Positions 1 through 47,555 of a stretch of 64,000 bases of DNA are shown piece after piece. Source of the DNA: a virus (taxonomy: Duplodnaviria; Heunggongvirae; Uroviricota; Caudoviricetes). Both the position numbers and the translations under genes were made by a program. The stretch lies in IMG/VR virus record IMGVR_UViG_3300032103_000073. One strand, written 5' to 3'. Numbering within the stretch: the first letter of the stretch is position 1; every line of letters begins with the position of its first letter. The notes under the pieces were generated by a model. It did not search any database. It had not been told where the DNA came from and saw only the letters and a program-made list of their open reading frames with translations.

Positions 1-51
1 ATGGCTTGTTAAGTAACAACGCAATTGGTAACGCTGTATAAAGGATAAAAC

Positions 52-735
52 ATGGCGGCATTAACTGACGCTATGAAGTGGTACAGTTTAGGCGGGCAAA
101 AAGCTGCCCGCCTAAAGTATCATTTTAAAGTTGAATTTTTTAGCAGTGGATATACTGAAAAATTAGGAGGAGCTTCAGCTCCTGCTCGTCTTATATTTGA
201 TTCGATTAGAACAATCGAATTACCGAAATACACAATTGAAACAGAAGTTGCAAACTCTTACAATGTAAGACAACTTGTGCCGACTAAAATTATATTTGAA
301 CCTATTAGCATTTCTTTTAACGATACACTAGACAACAGATTCCAAAAGTTCATAACAGCTTATATGGGAATTATTAGCGGAAGTTTTGCTAAATTAGATA
401 AGAGTGTAAGAACAGGATTTGACGATTTCGGTCTTAAGCTACTAGATACAAATAAAGATTGTCCGATAGACAAGATAGAAATTACTCGCTTCTACGGGGC
501 AGATGCAGATGTTAATGAGCTACAAAATAAGAGCAAAATAACACTATGGCGTCCTAAGATAGTTGATGTCCAACACGACACGCTGGATTATAGTGCAAGC
601 GAAGCTATAACATGGCAATTAAGTCTACGTTACGAAAGTGTTACCTATGATGAAGACGCAACCCCGGCACCTGGTGAAAAGCGCACACAGCAAGAATTAA
701 ATTATACTAAGAGCTTGGGAGACTTTGCAGGATGA
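52..735 (+). CDS. T4 gp19/gp54-like tail tube or baseplate tube-initiator protein
   Basis: F.VEF...IRTIELPKYTIETE..N.YN...PTKI.FEPISISFND and final L.LRYE pattern typical of the T4-like tail tube fold; SD GGA upstream. Confidence 0.6.
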   Translation: MAALTDAMKWYSLGGQKAARLKYHFKVEFFSSGYTEKLGGASAPARLIFDSIRTIELPKYTIETEVANSYNVRQLVPTKIIFEPISISFNDTLDNRFQKFITAYMGIISGSFAKLDKSVRTGFDDFGLKLLDTNKDCPIDKIEITRFYGADADVNELQNKSKITLWRPKIVDVQHDTLDYSASEAITWQLSLRYESVTYDEDATPAPGEKRTQQELNYTKSLGDFAG

Positions 736-1010
736 CATTAGAAACAGTTAAATTCGATCAAGTATATGGCAGGTTATTAACAGTAGGGCTTCATATCGAC
801 AAAGCTCGTGTGCTAGCAAAAACATTAATCGACATTAGTACAACACTTGGCATTGATATTAATGTATTGTTAAAGCAAGTAGATGCTAATGGCATGAGAT
901 TTGAAAACGAAGTATACAATCAATTAAACCAAGCAAGGACTAATAGTAGTCAATTGGGCTTTGTAGATTCTAGCAATATTCCTCCTGCAATATTACAACA
1001 GGTGGTATAA
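732..1010 (+). CDS. hypothetical protein
   Basis: ORF coupled (ATGA / TAATG overlaps) to both neighbours. Confidence 0.6.
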   Translation: MTLETVKFDQVYGRLLTVGLHIDKARVLAKTLIDISTTLGIDINVLLKQVDANGMRFENEVYNQLNQARTNSSQLGFVDSSNIPPAILQQVV

Positions 1011-1477
1011 TGGCTAATAACTATACACAGGGTTATTTTACGCCCCTAAACCCTAGTAAGTATATCGGTAACAACCAGCCTAAGTATCGCAGCGGCTGGG
1101 AATTGACAGTTATGAGATTTTGCGACACACACCCGGCAGTTATCGGCTGGGCAAGCGAATGTTTACGCATCCCTTATCGTAATCCTTTTACAGGTAAAGA
1201 TACTACTTACTATCCAGACTTCTTGATAAGTTATCAAGATAAGAATGGTAATAAGATTAGTGAAATTATTGAAGTAAAACCAAAAACTCAAGCAGTACTA
1301 GAGCTAGCAAAAAGCCAACAAGAAAAAGCCGCAGTTGTATTAAATATGGCTAAATGGGAAGCATGTAGAGCTTGGTGCCAACGACACGGGATGAAGTTTA
1401 GAATACTTACAGAAGAAGATATTTACCGAAATTGGCAACCGAGAAGCAAACCTAAACAAAAGCGAGCAAGAAAATGA
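1010..1477 (+). CDS. head completion nuclease, T4 gp4-like (TnsA-type PD-(D/E)xK)
   Basis: NPSKYIG..PKYRSGWE...FCD......WASE..IPY...YYPDF...EVKP motifs. Confidence 0.85.
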   Translation: MANNYTQGYFTPLNPSKYIGNNQPKYRSGWELTVMRFCDTHPAVIGWASECLRIPYRNPFTGKDTTYYPDFLISYQDKNGNKISEIIEVKPKTQAVLELAKSQQEKAAVVLNMAKWEACRAWCQRHGMKFRILTEEDIYRNWQPRSKPKQKRARK

Positions 1478-1989
1478 CAAAGAAACTAGAAGAATTTTTT
1501 AACTTAGATTCGGCGGAACCGGATCGTAGTGAAAGCACAAATGAAGACCAGTTGCCCTTAGCTGCAACTGAGCTAGTGCCAATGCCGGACACACTGACAA
1601 AGATTAAAGATCAACTAAGTGTAGCAACTAAAATAGATGAAGCACTACCGCAAGTTCGTGGACTAGAAACAGAGGACAGGGACTTAGACGACTATGCTAA
1701 TAAAGCAATGGATACATTTGAGCGTTTAATGGATTTAGGATTTAACGTAGATGACCGCAATGCCGGCAAAATATTTGAAGTTGCCAGCACAATGATGAAC
1801 AATGCTATAACAGCAAAAACAACCAAACTAGATAAAAAGCTAAAAATGGTTGAACTACAGTTAAAACTAGCAAGATTACAAAAAGATTTGGGCAAAGAAG
1901 AAGCCGCAGACGATAACAAGCCGGGTGAGTTAAGTACCGACCGTAATGCTATTCTTAACTTAATCAACCAAAACTTAAAGAAGCATTAA
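1474..1989 (+). CDS. hypothetical coiled-coil protein (possible small terminase subunit)
   Basis: Helical, located upstream of terL; small-terminase role inferred from position only. Confidence 0.35.
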   Translation: MTKKLEEFFNLDSAEPDRSESTNEDQLPLAATELVPMPDTLTKIKDQLSVATKIDEALPQVRGLETEDRDLDDYANKAMDTFERLMDLGFNVDDRNAGKIFEVASTMMNNAITAKTTKLDKKLKMVELQLKLARLQKDLGKEEAADDNKPGELSTDRNAILNLINQNLKKH

Positions 1990-2019
1990 ACACAGATAAA
2001 TAATGTATCGGAGAACACA

Positions 2020-2643
2020 ATGAAAACTCTATTTGAATACATAGAAACACTACAACAAAAGCACGATGTTCGCATTAAGCTAGCTTGCGAATGCAATGAC
2101 GACATGTGCGATCGAATTGAAAAGCACTTGGAAAAGTATGATGCTGAAAAAATTAGTCGTCCTAGTAAGACTATTTTACAACGCCGCCCGTTAGATTTCC
2201 CTAACATGGATATGGCAGAAGTTTATATTATAGATTTTACTAGCAACTTGCCAGTTAGTCCTGAGATGCTAAAACAAGAACTAGTAAAACTTCTAAATAT
2301 AAGCGAAGCTGAAATTGTAGTTCGTATGGCTAACGAGCCTCGCGAACTAGAAGCAGAGCATGACGAAGAAGGTGAAAAGTTCTTAAAAGAACCTAAAGAA
2401 GCCAAACCTTTACTAGGCACAGACTATAGCAAAGAAGAAGCTGCTGAAGAAAAAGCAACAGACTTATATGGCGACAAGTATAACAGTGCATTCTTAAAAG
2501 AATTGAAAAAACTTAGCGACGACCGCAAGAAAGAAACTAAAGCACCAAAGCTAAAGGATCCGGATGTTCCTGCAACAGCACCCGAGTTTGGTGATAGTAA
2601 AGCAACAAATACCAAGAGTCCTGTTGCAACTAGAAAGGAATAA
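2020..2643 (+). CDS. hypothetical late protein
   Basis: Long ORF with SD GGAG and upstream GATAAATA. Confidence 0.65.
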   Translation: MKTLFEYIETLQQKHDVRIKLACECNDDMCDRIEKHLEKYDAEKISRPSKTILQRRPLDFPNMDMAEVYIIDFTSNLPVSPEMLKQELVKLLNISEAEIVVRMANEPRELEAEHDEEGEKFLKEPKEAKPLLGTDYSKEEAAEEKATDLYGDKYNSAFLKELKKLSDDRKKETKAPKLKDPDVPATAPEFGDSKATNTKSPVATRKE

Positions 2644-2645
2644 TC

Positions 2646-3368
2646 ATGGATTTAGTAAAGTTATTAAGCAAGTTAAATGCTATCAGCGAAGAAAAGAAGC
2701 CCGATGCTGATAAAGACGGCGTACCTGATTGGGCAGATAAAAAAGCAGGCGATGACGACACTGAAGAAAAGTCTAAAGCCAATGAAGACATTTTTAATGT
2801 GCTAAAAGGTCTAAAAGCCATACAAGAAGGCAATACAGAAGAACAAATCGACGAATGTGGCGAAATGGAGATGAGTCCTTTAACTGCACCTGATGCTGGA
2901 ATCGAAATGCAACCTATGGCTGCAATGATTCATGCAGAACCAGATGGTGACGAAATGCCAGCATTTGCAGCAGAACCTGAAGAAGCTGCTGCACGTTATA
3001 CACTAAGCATACAAAACGGTGACAGCAACTTAAACATGACTACTGATGTTCCCGATGAAATTATTCATATCATGAAGTTAGCAGGCGTACAAGGAAAAGC
3101 CGAAGTAAAGCCAGCTGAACAGGAACAAGCCGGTGAAGAACAGCCAGAAGCAGAAGAAAAAGAAGTCGACGAAGCATGGGGAAACACTCCAGCTGCAACT
3201 AAAGAAAAAGAACCAAAAGCCTATGGTGACATTCGCGACTGGGCGTTAAAGGGTACAGGACAAGGCAAGCCAGGTTATGGTGACCGTCGCGCTCCTGGAC
3301 AAGGCGACAATCCTATGAGCGAAAGCTATATGATGGAAGAATATAAACTGTTTAAATCTGGAAAATGA
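2646..3368 (+). CDS. acidic hypothetical protein with DADKDGVPD Ca-binding-like motif
   Basis: ORF with SD AAGGA; single DxDxDG motif. Confidence 0.55.
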   Translation: MDLVKLLSKLNAISEEKKPDADKDGVPDWADKKAGDDDTEEKSKANEDIFNVLKGLKAIQEGNTEEQIDECGEMEMSPLTAPDAGIEMQPMAAMIHAEPDGDEMPAFAAEPEEAAARYTLSIQNGDSNLNMTTDVPDEIIHIMKLAGVQGKAEVKPAEQEQAGEEQPEAEEKEVDEAWGNTPAATKEKEPKAYGDIRDWALKGTGQGKPGYGDRRAPGQGDNPMSESYMMEEYKLFKSGK

Positions 3369-4900
3369 GTGGCACCCCGGTTTTAGTCAAACAGCCTTAT
3401 AAAAAAGAAAGCTACACGGACAGGCAGATAGCGGAGATTGTAAAAGCCGCTACTGATCCTGTTTACTTTATCAGCGAGTACATGTGGATTCAGCATCCTA
3501 CAAAAGGGCGAGTAAAGTTTGAACTATATGATTATCAAGTAGACCTAATCAAATGCTATCACGAAAACCGTTATAGCATAAACATGCTAGGTCGCCAAAT
3601 GGGTAAATCTACTTGCGCAGCTGGCTATTTACTTTGGTATGCCATGTTTGTTCCCGACAGTACGATTCTTATTGCTGCACACAAGTATACAGGTAGTCAG
3701 GAAATCATGCAGCGTGTCCGCTTCATGTATGAAAACTTACCCGAATGGATTAAAGCTGGCGCAACTAGCTACAACAAAGGTAGCATTGATTTTGACAACG
3801 GCTCGCGTATTGTAAGTGCTACAACAACAGAAAACACAGGTCGTGGTATGAGTATTACACTAGTTTACCTAGACGAGTTTGCCTTCGTTCCGCCTCGTAT
3901 TGCTAAAGAGTTTTGGACTGCTCTAAGCCCAACACTAGCAACAGGTGGTAAGTGTATTATTACCAGCACACCTAACCAAGACAACGACCAGTTTGCGCAG
4001 ATCTGGAATGAAGCTAACAAGAAAGTAGATGCCTACGGCAACGAGCAAAAAGTTGGTAAAAACGGATTTGCCAGCATCATGTATATATGGAAAGATCATC
4101 CAGATAGAGATCATGCATGGGGCGAAACCGAACGAAGTAAAATTGGCGAAGAACGTTTCCTCCGAGAACACGAGTGTGTATTCATTACAGCAGATGAAAC
4201 GTTGGTAAACAGCATGATGCTGACTAACTTGGAAATAATGGAACCTCTTAAAAAGGTAGGACAGCTTAGAGTGTTTACGCCTATTGAAAAAGAATTTACC
4301 TATGTAGTGTCTTGGGATCCTAGTCTAGGTACCGGCAGCGACCCTGCTGCGATTGAAGTATTTAGGCTACCTGACCTACAGCAAGTAGCAGAATGGCAGC
4401 ACAATAAAACAGATGTCCGCGGACAGCTACGTATGCTAGTGACAATTTTAGACTATATTAAAGAGTCGGGTATTGAATCTGATAGCTTATATTGGAGCGT
4501 AGAAAATAATACACTGGGCGAAGCAGCACTAGTAGCCATTACAGAATACGGCGAAGAACGTATCCCTGGCTACTTTTTAAGTGAGCCGGGCGCAAAACGT
4601 CGCGGCTTTAACACAACTAACAAAAGCAAGTTAGCAGCCTGTACCAAGCTCAAGTATTATATTGAATCAGGTAAGATGGTGCCAAAAAGCAAAAACCTAA
4701 TACAAGAGCTTAAGACCTTTGTTGCCCATGGTGCTAGCTTTGCAGCCAAAGAAGGTGAAACAGATGATTTGGTAATGGCTACGCTGCTAGCAGTTAGAGT
4801 TATTGAACACCTAATGAAGTATGACGAAAAGACCTATGCACGTTTAGTAGAGCGACATAGTGATGATTTTGTGGCTCCTATGCCGATAGGCATTTTATAA
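3365..4900 (+). CDS. terL: terminase large subunit (T4 gp17-like)
   Basis: GRQMGKS Walker A, LDEFAF Walker B, ITSTPN coupling motif, C-terminal RNase H-like WDPS...DDLVMA. Confidence 0.95.
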   Translation: MSGTPVLVKQPYKKESYTDRQIAEIVKAATDPVYFISEYMWIQHPTKGRVKFELYDYQVDLIKCYHENRYSINMLGRQMGKSTCAAGYLLWYAMFVPDSTILIAAHKYTGSQEIMQRVRFMYENLPEWIKAGATSYNKGSIDFDNGSRIVSATTTENTGRGMSITLVYLDEFAFVPPRIAKEFWTALSPTLATGGKCIITSTPNQDNDQFAQIWNEANKKVDAYGNEQKVGKNGFASIMYIWKDHPDRDHAWGETERSKIGEERFLREHECVFITADETLVNSMMLTNLEIMEPLKKVGQLRVFTPIEKEFTYVVSWDPSLGTGSDPAAIEVFRLPDLQQVAEWQHNKTDVRGQLRMLVTILDYIKESGIESDSLYWSVENNTLGEAALVAITEYGEERIPGYFLSEPGAKRRGFNTTNKSKLAACTKLKYYIESGKMVPKSKNLIQELKTFVAHGASFAAKEGETDDLVMATLLAVRVIEHLMKYDEKTYARLVERHSDDFVAPMPIGIL

Positions 4901-4920
4901 ACATCTGGCTAAATACACGT

Positions 4921-6186
4921 ATGGCAATTGATTTTAATACCGTAGCAGATAGAGTATTTGACCAGCTAAAAGGCTTTGGTCACAGCATTACTATTTTTGA
5001 CGAAAACGGCAAGCAAACCGTAAACGCAGCAGAAGGACGTTATTTTTATAGCACCGACCAAAAGTTTACAGTTGAGATAAACCAAGACGAAAGCGTTATT
5101 AAGATTAAGTACGGTGAGGGGACAGATCCTGCACGTATGCAAAAATTGCAAAGCACTATTCGCAATGGAATTGCAAAGAAATTTATTTTAGGTGTGGACC
5201 TTAGACCTTATACAGGCAAGGACATTGAACCAAAGGATGTAGAAAATATGGTTAAAGTTCAAGAAAGTTTAGGCCCAGTTGCTGGTTCTATGAAAACAAG
5301 TTATCAGCAAACAGAGGGTGCAAAACTAATTATAAGACACAGCAAGCCTGTAAATGAAGAAGTTCGCGGTAGCCGCAGCAGAAACATTCACGCATTGTTT
5401 ATAGAAAACGCTCAGGGAGAACGATTCCGTTATCCTCACATCCATTTGGCAGCGGCTAGAACTATGACTCAGCACGTAGCAGAAGGTGGCACACCTTATG
5501 ACGACGTTGGTCAAAAAATTATCAGCCTAAGTGAAGAACGTGGTCAACTACTTCAAGTAGCACGTTATATCAAATCAAACGGACTCAACGAACAGGCTAG
5601 CGATGTGCAGTTTGCAGTTGGTCAGCGTTTAGGTGATATCAAAGGATTGTTAAGTGGTAGATTTAGCGCAGAGCGACTAGCTAAAGATGTTCACGAAGCA
5701 GACGAAACAAATCTGGAAGCACTACAAGAAAAACTAACCAAAAACGTATTTGACGAAAACATCGGCACATTATTACCAAAATTAAATGGCTATATGAAAT
5801 CTTATCAAGCACAAATGGAAGCAACTAAGGCATTTGATTCATTAAAACAACAAGTAGAAGAAGCAACAAGCATAGCAGTTAGTGCTATTCCAGATTTAGA
5901 TTTTAGCAGCGTAGTAGTTTATGAAAGCCCGACCGTCAATACAACTGAGTTGATCAATTTGGTTTTACCGGTTCTAGAAGACCAAACGGTTAAAGCAGCG
6001 CTAACAGCAGTAAGCGAGCATGTTGCCGAAGGACGTTTAGATCCAGCAGCAGTTGAAAACTTAACTCGCGGTATCATTGGAAAATGCAGCCGCCAAACTG
6101 CTATGGAAGATAGCCGTTATGAAGTTGGTGCAATGTTTGAAACAGCATTACGCAAGTTCAGCGTTGAAGAAATATTGAAATCGTGA
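4921..6186 (+). CDS. hypothetical late (probably virion) protein
   Basis: 421-aa ORF after CTAAATA late-type motif. Confidence 0.6.
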   Translation: MAIDFNTVADRVFDQLKGFGHSITIFDENGKQTVNAAEGRYFYSTDQKFTVEINQDESVIKIKYGEGTDPARMQKLQSTIRNGIAKKFILGVDLRPYTGKDIEPKDVENMVKVQESLGPVAGSMKTSYQQTEGAKLIIRHSKPVNEEVRGSRSRNIHALFIENAQGERFRYPHIHLAAARTMTQHVAEGGTPYDDVGQKIISLSEERGQLLQVARYIKSNGLNEQASDVQFAVGQRLGDIKGLLSGRFSAERLAKDVHEADETNLEALQEKLTKNVFDENIGTLLPKLNGYMKSYQAQMEATKAFDSLKQQVEEATSIAVSAIPDLDFSSVVVYESPTVNTTELINLVLPVLEDQTVKAALTAVSEHVAEGRLDPAAVENLTRGIIGKCSRQTAMEDSRYEVGAMFETALRKFSVEEILKS

Positions 6187-6335
6187 TATAAATATATTCA
6201 AGAGCAATTTAGCCAAAAGGACAAATTGCTCTTGATTTAGCAAGCAATAGTTTGCTACAATCGTTCATGAGACACTTGTTTCATGATCCAGGCACAAAAT
6301 AGGTTAAACCCTGGCACTTACTAAGGAAAAATATT

Positions 6336-7346
6336 ATGGCAACATTAGCAGAAATCCGCGCTCGTCTACTCGAGCAAGAAAACCGTACAAACGGCAACAA
6401 ACAAGGTGGCACAACAGACAATGCTATCTTCCCGTTCTGGAACATCCCAGAAAATTCAACAGCAGTTATTCGTTTCCTACCTGATGGAGATGAGTCTAAC
6501 ACATTCCCATGGCGCGAACGCCAAATGATCAACTTGGAATTTGCCGGCGTTAAAGGTGGCGATGAAAGTAAGCGCGTGACAGTTAAAGTCCCATGTATGG
6601 AAATGTGGAAAGAAACTTGCCCAATCCATGCAGAGATTCGCCCTTGGTTCAAGGATAAGAGTTTGGAAGACTTGGGTCGCAAGTATTGGAAGAAAAAGTC
6701 TTACATCTTCCAAGGCTTTGTTGTAAACAGCAGCCTAAGCGAAGAAAGCCTTCCGGAAAATTCAATCCGTCGCTTTGTTATCAACACAAGTATCTTTAAT
6801 ATTGTTAAAGGTGCGTTGATGGATCCGGATATGGAAAGTTTGTTTACAGACTACGAAAACGGCACAGACTTCCGTTTGACAAAGACAACTAAAGGTCAAT
6901 ACGCAGACTACTCTACCAGTAGCTTTGCACGTAAAGAACGTGGCCTAAACGAAGTTGAGTTGCAAGCTATTGCTACACATGGTTTGTATAACTTAAACGA
7001 CTTCATGCCAAAGAAGCCTACCAAGGAAGAAGTGGACATGATTTATGAAATGTTCAAAGCCAGCGTTGATGGCGAGTTGTATGATCCTGCACGTTGGGGG
7101 AATCACTTCCGTCCGGGCGGCGTAAATCTTGGCAACTTGATCCCAGCCAATGGCAGCGAAGATGCACCAGCCCGTCCAGCAGCTCCTGCACCAGCAGCCA
7201 AACCAGCTGTTGTAGCAGCTAAACCAGCTGTTGTAGCCGACGAGGACGATGAGCCTCCATTTGATGTAGATGGTGGAGCAGCACCTGAAGCTAAAAAGAA
7301 TGTCAACGACATTCTTGCAATGATTCGTAATCGTCAACAAAAGTAA
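6336..7346 (+). CDS. 32: single-stranded DNA-binding protein, T4 gp32-like
   Basis: AVIRFLPDGD, C....ETCPI, YWKKKSY, GTDFRLTKT..GQYADY motifs, Ala/Pro linker and acidic tail. Confidence 0.9.
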   Translation: MATLAEIRARLLEQENRTNGNKQGGTTDNAIFPFWNIPENSTAVIRFLPDGDESNTFPWRERQMINLEFAGVKGGDESKRVTVKVPCMEMWKETCPIHAEIRPWFKDKSLEDLGRKYWKKKSYIFQGFVVNSSLSEESLPENSIRRFVINTSIFNIVKGALMDPDMESLFTDYENGTDFRLTKTTKGQYADYSTSSFARKERGLNEVELQAIATHGLYNLNDFMPKKPTKEEVDMIYEMFKASVDGELYDPARWGNHFRPGGVNLGNLIPANGSEDAPARPAAPAPAAKPAVVAAKPAVVADEDDEPPFDVDGGAAPEAKKNVNDILAMIRNRQQK

Positions 7347-32231: not shown

Positions 32232-33710
32232 ATGATAATGTCGGGGAAACCTATCACAGTGCTCAAACGTAGCGGAGAGCATGAATTATTGCAAATTGAA
32301 AAGTGGCAAGCTCAGATTTCTAAAGTATGCACTGGTATTGCAGATGTTAGCCAAAGCATGATTGAAATCAAAGCTCAACCTCATTTCTTTGATGGAATTA
32401 CTACAAGAGAAATTGACGAAATTACTCTACGTGCAATTGTAAATTTAATAGACGTAGAATCTAATCCAGAAATAGGACATACAAATTATCAATACGTAGC
32501 AGGAAAGCAGCGATTAAGCATGCTACGAAAAGATGTGTACGGTGACTACCAAGTACCGCATATTTTTGAAATAGTAAAAAAGAACGTAGCGGTTGGTTTA
32601 TACACTCCTGAACTACTGGAATGGTATACAGAAGCAGACTGGAATAAGATGAATGACATGCTGGATCATGAGAAAGATGAACAGTATAGTTATGCAGCTA
32701 TCGAACAGTTAATTGAAAAATATCTAGTTCGCAATCGTGCTACAAAAGAAATTTATGAAACACCGCAGATCCGTTATATGGTTGCGGCAGCAACAGTTAT
32801 GCATAAAGAAGAGCCTAATAGCGCTCGTATGAGATTGATTAAGGAATACTACAATGCTTCTAGTGATGGGCTCTTTACTCTTGCTACACCTGTTCTTGCT
32901 GGTCTTGGCACTCCGACAAAACAATTTAGTAGTTGTGTGCTTATCAGGAGCGATGATGATTTGGATAGTATATTTGCTAGTGGCGAAATGATGGCCAAGT
33001 ATGCTAGCAAACGTGCTGGCATTGGCTTAGAGATTGGTCGCTTGCGCAGTCTAGGAAGTCCTATTAGGGGCGGCGAAATTATGCACACTGGTATGGTACC
33101 ATTCTTAAAGAAATGGTTTGGTGATCTACGCAGTTGCAGTCAAGGAGGTATTCGTAATGCTAGTGCTACGGTTTTCTATCCCATCTGGCATCATCAATTC
33201 GATGACCTTATTGTTCTCAAGAACAACCAAGGAACAGACGAAACTCGTGTCCGCCACATGGATTATGGTGTTGTGCTTTCTGCGTTTTTCTGGAGGAGAC
33301 TCAAGAACAAAGAAAATATTACCTTCTTTGACCCTAATGAAGTTCCCGACCTCTACGAAGCGTTCTATTCAAATACGGACAAGTTCAACGAACTTTATGA
33401 ACTGTATGAAAAGCGTACAGACCTACGTAAAAAAGTAATGTCAGCTGAAGAAGTATTCAAAGGCGGCATACTTAAAGAACGTACAGACACTGGACGCATA
33501 TATCTAGTATTCATTGACAACGTGATGAATCAAGGTCCGTTCGACCCTGAATACCATACAATTTATCAATCGAATTTGTGTCTGGAGATTTTGCTTCCGA
33601 CAGTTGCAATGGGAACAACTAAGAAAAAACTAATTAAAGTCCGCAAAAACAAAGCAAGTGATTTCTTAATGAACAAACCGGAGCAGTTTGTAAAATTGAA
33701 GAAGTTATAA
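32232..33710 (+). CDS. nrdA: ribonucleotide reductase class Ia alpha, N-terminal piece
   Basis: ATP-cone, ATPVLAG, FSSCVL (C225-equivalent), SNLCLE (N437/C439/E441-equivalent), then Lys-rich tail and TAA. Confidence 0.92.
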   Translation: MIMSGKPITVLKRSGEHELLQIEKWQAQISKVCTGIADVSQSMIEIKAQPHFFDGITTREIDEITLRAIVNLIDVESNPEIGHTNYQYVAGKQRLSMLRKDVYGDYQVPHIFEIVKKNVAVGLYTPELLEWYTEADWNKMNDMLDHEKDEQYSYAAIEQLIEKYLVRNRATKEIYETPQIRYMVAAATVMHKEEPNSARMRLIKEYYNASSDGLFTLATPVLAGLGTPTKQFSSCVLIRSDDDLDSIFASGEMMAKYASKRAGIGLEIGRLRSLGSPIRGGEIMHTGMVPFLKKWFGDLRSCSQGGIRNASATVFYPIWHHQFDDLIVLKNNQGTDETRVRHMDYGVVLSAFFWRRLKNKENITFFDPNEVPDLYEAFYSNTDKFNELYELYEKRTDLRKKVMSAEEVFKGGILKERTDTGRIYLVFIDNVMNQGPFDPEYHTIYQSNLCLEILLPTVAMGTTKKKLIKVRKNKASDFLMNKPEQFVKLKKL

Positions 33711-33766: not shown

Positions 33767-34537
33767 ATGAACTACTCGGGTTTTATATATGAATGGACAA
33801 ATAAGTTAGACGGTATGAAGTATTTGGGTTCACATAAAGGAACTATAAATGATGGTTATACTGGCAGCGGAAAAAGATTTGAAAATGCCAAGAACAAATA
33901 TGGTATTGAAAATTTTGATAGAGTAATAGTAGAATATGTTGAAAAGGAAGAAGATATTTTGATTAGAGAGCAATATTATTTGGACGAAAGAGATTGTGCC
34001 AAAAGTACTCTCTACTATAATATCTCACCCAACGCAGGTGGCGGCGGTGCAGCGGGCAATGGTCCTAAAATATCTGCTACTAAGAAAAAGAGATTTGCTT
34101 CCGGAGACTTAGTAACACACAACAAAGGTAAGGCAATGAAGGATGAGCAAAAACTTAAATTAGCCGACGAGTGGGAAGTTATTACCCCTGCTAACGAAGT
34201 TTTGACTATCACTAATATGCTTGAATTTTGTCGTCAACATAAACTAAATGCCAGTGCTATGAGCGCCGTGGCCCGTGGCAAGAAGAGTATGTATAAAGGT
34301 TATAAATGTAAAAAGTTAACCAATAAAAGAGATGTTGAATATGAACACAAAGAATATGTGTTTATGACTAAAGAGGAAAGAAGTCAACAACTAAAAGATT
34401 TGGCCATAAAGGGCGGAAAACATCACGAAGCAGTAAAGATTGAATACGAAGGTGTTGTTTATAGTAGTATCGCAGAAGCAAAAGAAGCAACAGGAAAAAG
34501 TTATTTTTTGATTACGAAATATGGAAAAAGAATATGA
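33767..34537 (+). mobile_element. GIY-YIG homing endonuclease inserted within nrdA
   Basis: GFIYEWTNKLDGMKYLGSH..Y.GSG; SD AGGAGG; GATAAATA at 33741. Confidence 0.88.
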
Positions 34538-34815
34538 TTACATTTTATCCTCGTGATATAGGAATGTGGAGAAAAGAATTTAATTTCAGTGATAGACATT
34601 CAATTACATTAGAAGCAAAAGAATATGCTGACCGAAAAGTATTGTATGACCGAGACGAACTAATTGGATTTCTGAAGGAACACGGCGTTAAATTGGATGA
34701 CCCAAATAACCCACTAAGAATTACAGGACCGCACGACAACGAATGGCTTGGGCCAGACACATACGATGTGGTGCAATGGTCTTTACTAGGATGGATTAAG
34801 GATGATTACAAATGA
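34534..34815 (+). CDS. hypothetical cargo protein within the nrdA insertion
   Basis: ATGA overlaps with both the endonuclease and the nrdA C-piece. Confidence 0.6.
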   Translation: MITFYPRDIGMWRKEFNFSDRHSITLEAKEYADRKVLYDRDELIGFLKEHGVKLDDPNNPLRITGPHDNEWLGPDTYDVVQWSLLGWIKDDYK

Positions 34816-35843
34816 ATGAATTATATGAAGAAATAGAACGTCTTCCAGAAGAACTGGATGATGAATATGAGTACTATGAGGTAGATGAAGATGCCGCGAG
34901 GATTAGTTTATGCACTCTCGGTAGTATTAACTGGGGTGCTTTCCGCAATCCAGAGGACATGCGCCGTGCTTGTCGTATCCTGCATCGTAGCCTTAATAAC
35001 ATTCTTGACTATCAAGATTTCTTAAGTATTCAATCTAAACTATCTAATGATGAAATCCGCCCTCTTGGCATCGGTGTCACTAACTTGGCCTACTGGCACG
35101 CCAAACGCGGTATGCAGTACGGCGAACGAGATGCACTGGCAGAAGTTAAGACATGGATGGAACACCAAGCATATTATCTAACAGAAATGTCGGTTGAGTT
35201 GGCTAAAGAACGCGGCGCGTGTGTTGATAGTGGTAAGACACGTTATGGACAAGGCGTGTTCCCCTGGGAGTTACGTGCAGATGGTGCCAACGAGCTAACA
35301 GACTTTACCCCGGAGTTAGATTGGGAAACACTACGTGCCAACATGAAACAATATGGTGTTCGTAATGCTACACAAATGGCAGTTGCACCAGTCGAGTCTA
35401 GCAGTGTTGTTATCAATAGCACAAACGGTATTGAAATGCCAATGAGCTTGATTAGCACAAAAGAATCAAAAGCCGGTAGCTTTACACAAGTCGTTCCTGA
35501 GTATAATAATGCCAGAGTTCGTAAAAACTACCAACTAATGTGGGAACAGCGTGATTGTATTGGGTACTTAAAGACCAGTGCAGTTATTGCAGCATATACA
35601 GATCAAAGTATTAGTACTAACACATTTTACAATCCTGCATATTTTGCAGATAAAAAAGTACCAACAACATTGATTGCTAAAAACCTAATGCTAGCACATC
35701 ACTGGGGATTAAAGACTTTCTACTATAGTTTAATTAACAAGCAAGGTGCAAAAGTAGCACAAGATGAAAATATCATCCATCTCAACACAGTTAAACAAGA
35801 TCAAGAAGAAGATGACGGTGTTTGCGAAAGTTGTGTATTATAA
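34812..35843 (+). CDS. nrdA: ribonucleotide reductase class Ia alpha, C-terminal piece
   Basis: Acidic leader, ISLCTLGSINWG (C462-equivalent), AVAPVESSS, KTFYY Tyr pair, terminal CESC. Confidence 0.92.
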   Translation: MNELYEEIERLPEELDDEYEYYEVDEDAARISLCTLGSINWGAFRNPEDMRRACRILHRSLNNILDYQDFLSIQSKLSNDEIRPLGIGVTNLAYWHAKRGMQYGERDALAEVKTWMEHQAYYLTEMSVELAKERGACVDSGKTRYGQGVFPWELRADGANELTDFTPELDWETLRANMKQYGVRNATQMAVAPVESSSVVINSTNGIEMPMSLISTKESKAGSFTQVVPEYNNARVRKNYQLMWEQRDCIGYLKTSAVIAAYTDQSISTNTFYNPAYFADKKVPTTLIAKNLMLAHHWGLKTFYYSLINKQGAKVAQDENIIHLNTVKQDQEEDDGVCESCVL

Positions 35844-35885
35844 AGGATTTTAACAAGCAGGCGCGCCGAGATGATAAATAACTGC

Positions 35886-36476
35886 ATGAAAGAAAAATAT
35901 GGCCTGACAAAACAATGCAGTTATTGCGGCTCGGCTTTTATTACAAAGCCTAGATTTATAGATTTTTGTTCGCAGAAATGTAAAAATCCTTTAAATAGGG
36001 GAGAGTTTGATCCTTGGAATAAAGGGTTAAAATTGACTGAAGAACAGAAATCTAAACAAAACACTTCTGGCTTGTTAAAAGGACATGGATGGAACAAAGG
36101 TCTTCCAAATGAAAAACAAAGCAAAAAATGGAAAGAAAATAATCCAAATAAAGATGGTAGATTAAATAATTTACGTCCAAAGTCCTATGTAGATGATGAA
36201 TTTACAGCATACAAGAGAGAAGTCCGTAAAGCAACGTATCGTTCTCGCTATCAAATGAAAATAGATGGAGAGATACCGTTAAACACAGGAAAGCGTAAAG
36301 ATCAGTTTCAGCTTGATCATATCGTTCCTTATAAACAGGGTTTTGAGTTAGGAATACCGCCGCATATATTAGGTAGCAAGAGCAATCTAAGGTGGATACT
36401 GGGGGAAGAAAACAGACAAAAATAGGATCGCTTCCAACCAGATGATGTTATTAATAAATTACTAAAGGGAAAATAA
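35886..36476 (+). mobile_element. zinc-finger/NUMOD3/HNH endonuclease with in-frame TAG at 36423-36425
   Basis: C..C...FCSQKC, PWNKG/GWNKG, LDHIVP...SNLR...EENR; frame stays open 16 codons past TAG to a TAA overlapping the iscU ATG. Confidence 0.75.
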
Positions 36477-36878
36477 TGGCTTACAGCGAAAAAGTTATAG
36501 ATCATTATGAGCAACCTCGGAACGTAGGATCTTTTGTCAAGGATGAGCCGCATGTCGGCACCGGCATAGTCGGTGCACCGGCATGCGGCTAGACTAGGCG
36601 ATGTAATGAAGTTGCAAATAAAAGTAAATCCAGAAACAGGCATAATCGAAGATGCACGTTTTAAAACTTACGGCTGCGGCAGTGCTATTGCTAGCTCTAG
36701 CCTAGTTACTGAATTAGTCAAGGGAATGACATTGGATCAAGCAACAAGTATTAAAAATTCTGCCATAGCAGAAGAACTTGCATTACCTCCTGTTAAGATT
36801 CACTGTAGTATTTTAGCAGAAGATGCGATTAAAGCAGCAGTAGAGGATTATAAAAAGAAAAATGATCACTCTAACTGA
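36476..36878 (+). CDS. iscU: Fe-S scaffold IscU interrupted by a 10-nt insert (putative ribosomal bypass)
   Basis: MAYSEKVIDHYEQPRNVGSF...GAPACG (36476-36589) and DVMKLQIKV...KTYGCGSAIAS...PPVKIHCS (36600-36878) join into canonical IscU once 10 nt are removed. Confidence 0.9.
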
Positions 36879-37182
36879 AGCCGCTGTTAAAAAAATTCGA
36901 GCAATGATAACCCGAAGAGGTTCGGGTATTGGCATACGGGTTGGCGTTAAAACAACAGGTTGCTCGGGCTTGGCTTATGTGTTAGAATATGTAGATGCTG
37001 CACAACCCGGAGATGAGAAAATCTTGTGCAACGGTTGTGAAATATATGTAGATCCAAAAAGTTGTCCATACTTACAAGGTATGACAATAGACTTTGTTCG
37101 AAATGGCTTGAACGAAGGGTTTGAATTTAAGAATCCCAATGAGCGAGATCGTTGCGGATGTGGAAGTAGTTTTAGAGTTTAA
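36862..37182 (+). CDS. iscA: Fe-S carrier IscA
   Basis: ITLTEAA, VKTTGCSGLAY, F.F.NPN...RCGCG.SF. Confidence 0.92.
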   Translation: MITLTEAAVKKIRAMITRRGSGIGIRVGVKTTGCSGLAYVLEYVDAAQPGDEKILCNGCEIYVDPKSCPYLQGMTIDFVRNGLNEGFEFKNPNERDRCGCGSSFRV

Positions 37183-44463: not shown

Positions 44464-44475
44464 ATAGTTTTAACA

Positions 44476-44765
44476 GCGTAAAGTGAAATAAAGAACGTGG
44501 TTCAAGAAAGGGGTTCAAATCCCCTGTCCTCCACCAAAAGCATTATCACAATTAAGGGTTGGTTGCCAGATATAGACCAGATAATGCTTTTGATGGGGGA
44601 CCTCCGGAATCGATTGGGCCGTAAGTAAGTATTTTATCGCTCGGGAATGTAGAACTCGTTAGGATTGGGGTAACCCGGTCGAAGAAGCAAAACAAAGTAA
44701 ACGCAAACTCTGACGTATACGAATTGGCAGCGTAAGCTGACTTGGGTAACTATACCTCGAAACAG
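44476..44765 (+). ncRNA. ssrA: circularly permuted (two-piece) tmRNA
   Basis: T-arm AGGGG-TTCAAAT-CCCCT and GTCCTCC-A-CCA (44509-44536) lie upstream of the 5' strand GGGGGAC (44595) with G3.U70; tag ORF ANSDVYELAA* at 44703-44735. Outer ends approximate. Confidence 0.9.
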
Positions 44766-47478: not shown

Positions 47479-47555
47479 GCGCTAGTAGCCCGTAAGGTAA
47501 GGGCAGCTGATTCTAAACCAGAGTGTAGCAGGTTCGATTCCTGTCTAGCGCACCA
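47479..47555 (+). tRNA. tRNA with CUA anticodon (putative amber suppressor)
   Basis: GCGCTAG/CTAGCGC acceptor, GCCC/GGGC D-stem, loop TT-CTA-AA, GCAGG-TTCGATT-CCTGT T-arm, A73, encoded CCA; anticodon stem only 3 of 5 Watson-Crick pairs. Confidence 0.8.

Follow-up and report, generated by a model that had tools for sequence, protein, structure and literature searches.

To our knowledge, programmed translational bypassing has so far been found in T4 gene 60 and its homologues and in yeast mitochondria. The gene 60 bypass and the HNH homing endonuclease mobA form a mobile cassette (bioRxiv 10.1101/2022.08.31.505936; bioRxiv 10.1101/2024.12.09.627546; Bonocora et al., 2011, cited there). In gene 60, forward bypassing has been proposed to be driven by pairing of the mRNA on the exit side of the ribosome (bioRxiv 10.1101/2024.12.09.627546). 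Synthetic stop-hops have been obtained in E. coli with engineered constructs (Weiss et al., 1987, as summarized in the review PMC5009743). The same 2016 review knew of no natural in-frame stop-hop, shorter counterparts of bypassing having long been presumed (PMC5009743).

Here we describe an interrupted iscU gene in the DNA of an uncultivated aquatic (freshwater) giant/jumbo phage. The whole stretch analyzed, hereafter the window, is 64,000 nucleotides long. The features at and around iscU are as follows.

35871–36476, plus strand: gene for an HNH-like freestanding nuclease (PHROG HNH, E 1.5e-4), open to 36425 under table 11
36476–36589, plus strand: iscU ORF1, codons 1–38, ending with Cys37 and Gly38 (NifU_N positions 1–35, E 2.3e-9)
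36539–36545, plus strand: SD-like purine motif AAGGATG (GGAGG in most relatives), directly 5' of the hairpin
36546–36590, plus strand: hairpin of 13 + 7 pairs with a 2-nt bulge and the loop AUA (RNAfold, covariation)
36590–36596, plus strand: gap, made of the stop TAG and the spacer ACTA, predicted to be untranslated from the sequence and from relatives with TAA, TAG or TGA plus 0–4 nt
36597–36599, plus strand: landing codon GGC (GGN then GAY GTN in 72/72 unique interrupted iscU)
36600–36878, plus strand: iscU ORF2, from Asp39 (GAT) to the stop at 36876–36878 (NifU_N positions 35–125, E 7e-38)
36862–37182, plus strand: iscA, overlapping the 3' end of iscU (Pfam Fe-S_biosyn, E 8e-22)

The iscU ATG is found at 36476, and 38 codons lead from there to GCA TGC GGC, with the take-off GGC at 36587–36589. 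This codon is followed by TAG (36590–36592), ACTA (36593–36596), a second GGC (36597–36599) and GAT GTA ATG AAG TTG, which confirms the GGC-TAG-ACTA-GGC layout of the original prediction. Read with table 11, the iscU frame is broken after these 38 codons. The first ORF covers positions 1–35 of the Pfam NifU_N profile and the second, counted from the landing glycine, positions 35–125. Since the two halves abut at position 35, omission of 10 nt makes the profile continuous, without any added or missing residue, and the predicted exact restoration of IscU fits. The IscU/NifU_N ligands are all present, namely GAPAC (Cys37), D39, YGCGS and IHCS, the last two being encoded in ORF2. As ORF1 ends with Cys37-Gly38, the hop would indeed come right after Cys37.

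The 10-nt insert is real and not an assembly error, a possibility that the original prediction had asked to check: contigs of three studies carry it. The Logan contig of the source sample (25.8 kb), made from the same sample by an independent assembler, keeps the 10 nt and shows 0 differences over 801 bases. Contigs from two other studies (X3 record 5 and X4 record 11) span the site with 11 and 8 differences, respectively, and 0 gaps. In both strains the take-off codon is GGT instead of GGC, with the stem pairing kept as G-U, and 6/6 differences from the window downstream of the gap are third-position changes that are synonymous in the landing frame. A run labelled as metatranscriptomic (X5) gave a single contig, which spans 36854–37000 only.

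Elsewhere in the window, a tRNA with the anticodon CUA, of the amber suppressor type, is found at 47479–47555 on the plus strand (Rfam tRNA, 50.9 bits; "Pyl" according to ARAGORN). This tRNA could read the UAG at the iscU take-off site as well as an in-frame TAG in the nuclease gene. Reassignment of TAG was rejected, the longest ORFs being no longer when TAG is read as sense. A permuted tmRNA lies at 44475–44735 on the plus strand (Rfam RF04321, 74.6 bits), for which ARAGORN gives the tag ANSDVYELAA. Upstream of the iscU region, the nrdA gene is broken exactly at Pfam barrel positions 219/220, and its two parts are separated by a GIY-YIG endonuclease gene and a 93-aa ORF (32232–33710, 33767–34537, 34534–34815, and 34812–35843, plus strand). 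This split nrdA resembles the mobE-split nrdA of Aeromonas phages.

A sample of 80 viral iscU loci, fetched by the C-terminal part alone and without selection for a stop, contains five interrupted genes. All are interrupted directly after Gly38 by GGN-stop-N1-3-GGN, the stop directly following the take-off codon in 5/5. The 80 loci showed no break of another type. A viral scan limited to the pattern VGAPACG followed by T[AG][AG] returned 76 unique matches, of which 72 are iscU. In all 72, GGN-stop-N0-4-GGN occurs at the same codon, both take-off and landing codons are GGN (GGC/GGC in the window), and the landing GGN is followed by GAY GTN in the downstream frame. The alignment of related phages thus bears out the original prediction, with the same insert codon in 72 unique iscU and a covarying hairpin. 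Random inactivating indels, which would have spoken for decay, were not found among the 80 sampled loci: the break is at one codon.

Among the 71 full-length unique sequences, the insert is 6 nt (3 sequences), 7 nt (35), 8 nt (18), 9 nt (13), or 10 nt long (2). When partial loci are included, the 10-nt class comprises 4 unique forms in the viral scan, and a metagenome scan for this class, in which the matches listed are mostly chance matches, added at least 5 further variants with spacers such as ATTA, ATTT, and CCCA. The class of the window is therefore the longest and rarest, yet its form is not unique. The spacers are free to vary (ACTA, AACC, ATTT, ATTA, CCCA; C, G, A; CA, CT, CC). The exact site pattern gave 0 matches in the IMG/VR collection that was searched, from which the window itself is absent. 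No interrupted iscU was seen in phage GenBank records, which hold only distant iscU genes (63–73% identity), nor in bacterial genomes among the at least 120 matches listed, which are chance matches. On trees, we counted 26–29 changes of insert state for the C part, 18 for the first 66 nt, and 3 for the N part with the hairpin, compared to about 47 with shuffled labels. This pattern suggests mosaicism or homing; the segments are 66–264 nt long and the trees noisy, and we do not use them as evidence. In three phage contigs, the C-part ORF of iscU is 1278–1299 nt long and its frame continues for about 1.3 kb beyond the usual end, suggestive of IscU fusion proteins.

The hairpin lies in the coding sequence of the first ORF. 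The APACG codons make up its 3' arm, the last bases of which are the take-off GGC and the U of the stop. The stem originally proposed, of 12 + 7 pairs, is an equivalent variant of the 13 + 7 pairs given above, and its claimed end on the take-off codon and the stop holds. The stem lies 5' of the gap, and a role as A-site take-off stem-loop does not apply to it. Neither is such a stem-loop formed by the start of the gap, as only 3–7 nt separate the two codons. RNAfold gave an MFE of -44.3 kcal/mol for a 91-nt stretch (z = -5.8), and 0/200 shuffled sequences were as stable. As a control, all 2,343 "XYN-stop-N0-4-XYN" sites on both strands of the window were folded. The iscU site has the strongest upstream fold ending on a take-off codon, with -35.4 kcal/mol compared to a mean of -7.6 (sd 3.9) for the 2,343 sites. 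Beyond the landing codon, we detected no extra RNA structure (MFE of -4.6 vs. -4.7 for controls) and no conservation beyond the protein level.

Covariation was analyzed in 22 distinct sequences, in which a 10-bp core is 100% paired. Pair 15–45 is AU in 10 sequences, CG in 8, and UA in 4, and pair 18–42 is UA in 11, CG in 7, GC in 2, and UG in 2; neither is unpaired in any sequence. Shifting the partner by 1–3 columns lowers pairing from 87.5% to 33–40%. In the 13-pair register, insert-bearing genes form 10–13 pairs whereas uninterrupted genes form 3–9, with two at 11. Synonymous diversity is reduced in the hairpin arms, and the hairpin imposes H or Q at position -12.

The list of signals in the original prediction was incomplete: it missed both the upstream nuclease gene and an SD-like motif directly 5' of the hairpin. 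Relative to the take-off codon, GGAG or GAGG lies between -49 and -45 in 68/71 insert-bearing genes compared to 2/70 genes without insert (unique sequences, p = 8e-34), and the looser AGGA in 71/71 and 6/70, respectively. The G positions of the motif are invariant in insert-bearing genes only. The motif is preserved as a nucleotide sequence, whereas the amino acids encoded there differ (KED, KGD, EET, EEI). The window's own version is weak (AAGGA).

The stop is mostly followed by C or A (UGA-C in 26/32, UAA-C in 13/14, and UAG-A in 15/25). In E. coli, termination is weak in such contexts, and the prfB site has UGA-C. In the 9-nt inserts, the stop is always TAG. As for the matched codons that had been put forward, the take-off and landing codons are GGN everywhere, but an exact match is not conserved: their wobble class agrees in 38/71 sequences, where 35 are expected. 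The commonest pair is GGT to GGA (23 unique sequences), and such a wobble mismatch implies either that re-pairing relies on two G-C pairs or that a tRNA-Gly reads all GGN. In the 6 sequences that have GGG one nt before the landing codon, take-off and landing codons are GGC or GGT, of the same tRNA class, in 6/6.

We consider it likely, with good confidence, that peptidyl-tRNA-Gly makes a programmed hop from GGN to GGN and that normal IscU results. The insert lengths fall into three classes modulo 3 with the same flanks, so that no single frameshift or read-through event fits all of them, whereas a GGN-to-GGN hop does. The reading of the site as a programmed bypass is thus supported in silico by its recurrence in 72 unique genes, by covariation, and by selection on both gene halves.

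Conventional recoding could still account for the inserts if each length class had its own mechanism, with +1 frameshifting for 7 and 10 nt, -1/+2 for 8 nt, and read-through for 6 and 9 nt. It would add 1–3 residues between Gly38 and Asp39 (G-R-L-G-D in the product of the window). Inspection of the insert strings showed that no alternative path meets a stop within the gap, which is compatible with recoding, as are the constant TAG of the 9-nt inserts in view of the tRNA(CUA) carried by the phage and the fact that UGA-C is the prfB +1 context. However, three or four unrelated mechanisms would be needed at one codon that shares the hairpin, the SD-like motif, and the GGN...GGN frame. The tRNA-Gly in the P site would also have to slip from GGN to GNU or GAU without cognate overlap. 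In addition, the spacer is free to vary as would untranslated bases, and the added residues would fall between the ligand Cys37 and Asp39. Recoding of this kind is therefore unlikely.

The pattern of substitutions indicates that both iscU halves are under purifying selection across the family. For 71 unique insert-bearing sequences, we obtained pN/pS values of 0.26 for the codons upstream of the hairpin, 0.14 for those that form it, and 0.23 for the C part; uninterrupted iscU gave 0.15–0.18. The D39 and V40 codons vary synonymously only (GAT 59/GAC 12; GTA 40/GTC 16/GTT 10/GTG 5), and this synonymous-only variation of GGN GAY GTN argues that the stretch is translated in the landing frame.

The same codons bear on the idea of a split gene, in which a 38-residue N-peptide and a second product reinitiated at Met41 (ATG at 36606) would assemble. 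An ATG does lie 6–10 nt past the landing codon in 59/71 unique sequences, and the GGAGAT before it can resemble an SD sequence. Codon 41 is, however, CTT or TTA and not ATG in 12 unique sequences, and in 9 of them the following 30 codons contain no ATG, GTG, or TTG. Moreover, the codons GGN GAY GTN between the stop and the ATG vary synonymously with the encoded residues unchanged, and uninterrupted genes have the same GDVM coding sequence. At the level of sequence, the 12 genes without ATG rule out reinitiation as a general mechanism, and we hold a split gene to be very unlikely.

If a hairpin-guided cut-and-ligate reaction or a polymerase jump took 6–10 nt out at the RNA level, the exact end of the hairpin at the gap would find an explanation, and large phages often encode RNA ligases. 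Against this, we know of no enzyme that removes 6–10 nt beside a hairpin, realignment of a polymerase would rest on 2–3 matching bases, and a stop at the first gap position in a weak termination context would have no role, which makes RNA-level removal highly improbable. Transcriptional slippage or a polymerase jump was rejected as a candidate in its own right (no homopolymer run, 2–3 matching bases only). Finally, a dead gene, due to a sequencing or assembly error or to a recent inactivating indel after nuclease attack, would explain the table 11 frame broken after 38 codons but is scarcely credible given the insert in three studies, the 6/6 synonymous differences downstream, a family pN/pS of 0.23, the same site with a covarying hairpin in 72 unique sequences, and no other break type in 80 sampled viral iscU.

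The programmed hop could proceed as follows. iscU would be decoded up to Gly38, at which point the P site would hold peptidyl-tRNA-Gly paired to GGC and the A site the UAG. The slow-to-decode stop would open a time window for take-off; the tRNA would then leave the take-off GGC, the mRNA slide by 10 nt, and the tRNA re-pair with the next GGC, after which decoding would restart at GAT (Asp39) to yield normal IscU. When take-off occurs, the ribosome would enclose the 3' arm of the outer stem (-9 to +3), with the 5' arm and the SD-like motif already outside. The 5' arm may zip with the 3' arm (the APACG codons), drawing the mRNA out on the exit side and thus moving the ribosome forward, as proposed for exit-side pairing in gene 60. 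The folded hairpin would place the SD-like motif at its foot within a few bases of the landing codon, where, more speculatively, pairing with 16S rRNA might help to set the landing register. Two points speak against parts of this scheme. After a slide of 7–10 nt, the 3' arm of the outer stem would have emerged only partly, so that the pull by the hairpin is a model and not an observation. Furthermore, decoding of the take-off UAG by the tRNA(CUA) of the phage could lead ribosomes into a dead frame.

The gene upstream of iscU encodes a putative nuclease whose N-terminal part has a Cys4 zinc finger; it also has NUMOD3-like WNKG repeats and, in the C-terminal part, a DH...N...N motif that is conserved in alignment A2. 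Besides the PHROG HNH match (E 1.5e-4), Pfam HNH stays below threshold in 9/23 relatives. In structure comparison with VIA, the Gme HNH nickase ranks first (Z 5.0), and the top Foldseek rows are colicin/pyocin DNases with E > 1. No match was found against the PDB by sequence, nor by Foldseek at E <= 0.001. The HNH assignment is thus weak but consistent. An in-frame TAG interrupts the gene at 36423–36425, where 21/22 relatives have a Trp (K-W-DRFQP). The 16 codons past this TAG are conserved, and the read-through ORF ends with TAATG, overlapping the iscU start. This TAG may have arisen as a recent nonsense mutation, or the suppressor tRNA of the phage may read it.

A homologue of this nuclease lies directly upstream of iscU in 73/112 insert-bearing contigs and in 0/73 uninterrupted ones (p = 5e-23); in unique sequences, the figures are 46/66 and 0/66. 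The linked ORF is on the same strand and ends between 4 nt before and 45 nt past the iscU start. The nuclease is absent from 39/112 insert-bearing contigs. The nrdA/iscU/nrdB neighborhood occurs in several states: insert and nuclease are both missing from L063 and L066, which also lack iscA, L194 carries the insert alone, and the window has both. L232 and L236 hold nuclease remnants of roughly 70 aa. By comparison with described elements, this distribution of insert and nuclease is that of a homing-endonuclease life cycle, parallel to mobA/gene 60. DNA identity to the relatives used for the cassette borders (L194, L063, and L004) is only 60–79%, too low to be informative.

Three other iscU-linked nucleases (L208, 320–1072; L240, 3063–3812; L235, 546–1298) keep the same N-terminal zinc-finger/NUMOD3-like part, while a DUF559/Vsr-like domain replaces the HNH motif (DUF559, E 9e-7 in L208 and L240, which were scanned). 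They represent a nuclease-domain swap on one targeting module. The genes of L208 and L235 adjoin 10-nt TGA inserts.

At the DNA level, the insert may break the conserved APACGDVMK-coding sequence as the target of the upstream HNH-like nuclease. The nuclease gene, the hairpin-bearing 5' end of iscU, and the insert would then spread as a homing cassette that spares the invaded gene. We infer that, besides being hopped over, the insert probably protects iscU from the linked putative homing nuclease. Taken as a whole, we find it reasonably probable that these sites form a natural and widespread family of 6–10 nt stop-hops, driven by a tripartite 5' signal. This signal would have evolved separately from T4 gene 60, serving as the self-immunity half of a homing-nuclease cassette. 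It would consist of the SD-like motif, the hairpin with its 3' arm inside the ribosome, and the Gly-stop take-off site.

If true, this would be the first natural family of short stop-hops, with dozens of natural variants comprising five gap lengths, three stop codons, and many compensated stems. The signal is about 60 nt long and of reporter size, which makes the exit-side mRNA-pairing model directly testable. It would also provide a second, independent homing nuclease that travels with a translational fix for its own damage. "Nuclease plus bypass" could then be a general route by which selfish DNA invades essential coding sequence with neither intron nor intein. In practice, gene callers will label an insert-bearing iscU as a pseudogene or as two fragments.

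Our literature searches found no paper on translational bypassing in iscU and nothing relevant on iscU, phages, and homing endonucleases. The MobA preprint does not mention iscU, and its survey of MobA cassettes covers topoisomerase genes only. The iscU site and gene 60 share a Gly take-off codon, a stop in the A site, and a Gly landing codon, and both have a 5' stem-loop in the coding sequence and an SD-like element. Both are stop-containing inserts in a conserved gene beside a freestanding nuclease gene, with presence/absence polymorphism of the cassette among related phages. At 6–10 nt, compared to 50 nt in gene 60 (20 in one Aeromonas clade), the iscU gap is too short to accommodate an A-site take-off stem-loop or a 3' barrier as in gene 60. 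The hairpin lies 0 nt from the take-off codon in iscU, whereas that of gene 60 lies 9 nt upstream (10.1101/2024.12.09.627546). The SD-like motif is 5' of the hairpin in iscU and 6 nt before the landing codon in gene 60. The invaded gene is iscU instead of a topoisomerase gene (II large subunit), and it is not split in two by the nuclease gene, unlike gene 60/mobA. Comparison of the iscU nuclease with T4 positions 1–7000, which include mobA and gene 60, gave no tblastn match (P0001) and only E > 1 with the profile (A2), and this lack of similarity argues for an independent origin of the iscU-linked nuclease.

The 6-nt class (GGT TAG GGC, GGT TGA GGA) has the exact form of the synthetic E. coli stop-hops. 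Compared to these, the proposed iscU hop is natural and conserved, can change frame (7, 8, or 10 nt), and has dedicated stimulators in the hairpin and the SD-like motif. The mitochondrial byps of Magnusiomyces/Saprochaete are, like the iscU inserts, short mobile inserts in conserved genes with matched codons, but they are longer and GC-rich, fold within the gap, and occupy many sites per mitochondrial genome (PMC5009743). The iscU inserts instead occupy one site in one gene, in phages, with the structure upstream of the gap. With prfB (RF2), iscU shares a poor UGA-C stop context in the A site and an SD-like stimulator, which in iscU would likewise act through the 16S tail. In prfB, the +1 shift occurs at CUU UGA C, re-pairing overlaps by one base, and the SD lies 3 nt upstream. 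In iscU, the new codon does not overlap the old one, and the SD-like motif is about 45 nt upstream, coming near only if the hairpin folds. The analysis as a whole supports the iscU site as a new, short, and structurally distinct form of programmed bypassing that is linked to a putative homing nuclease.
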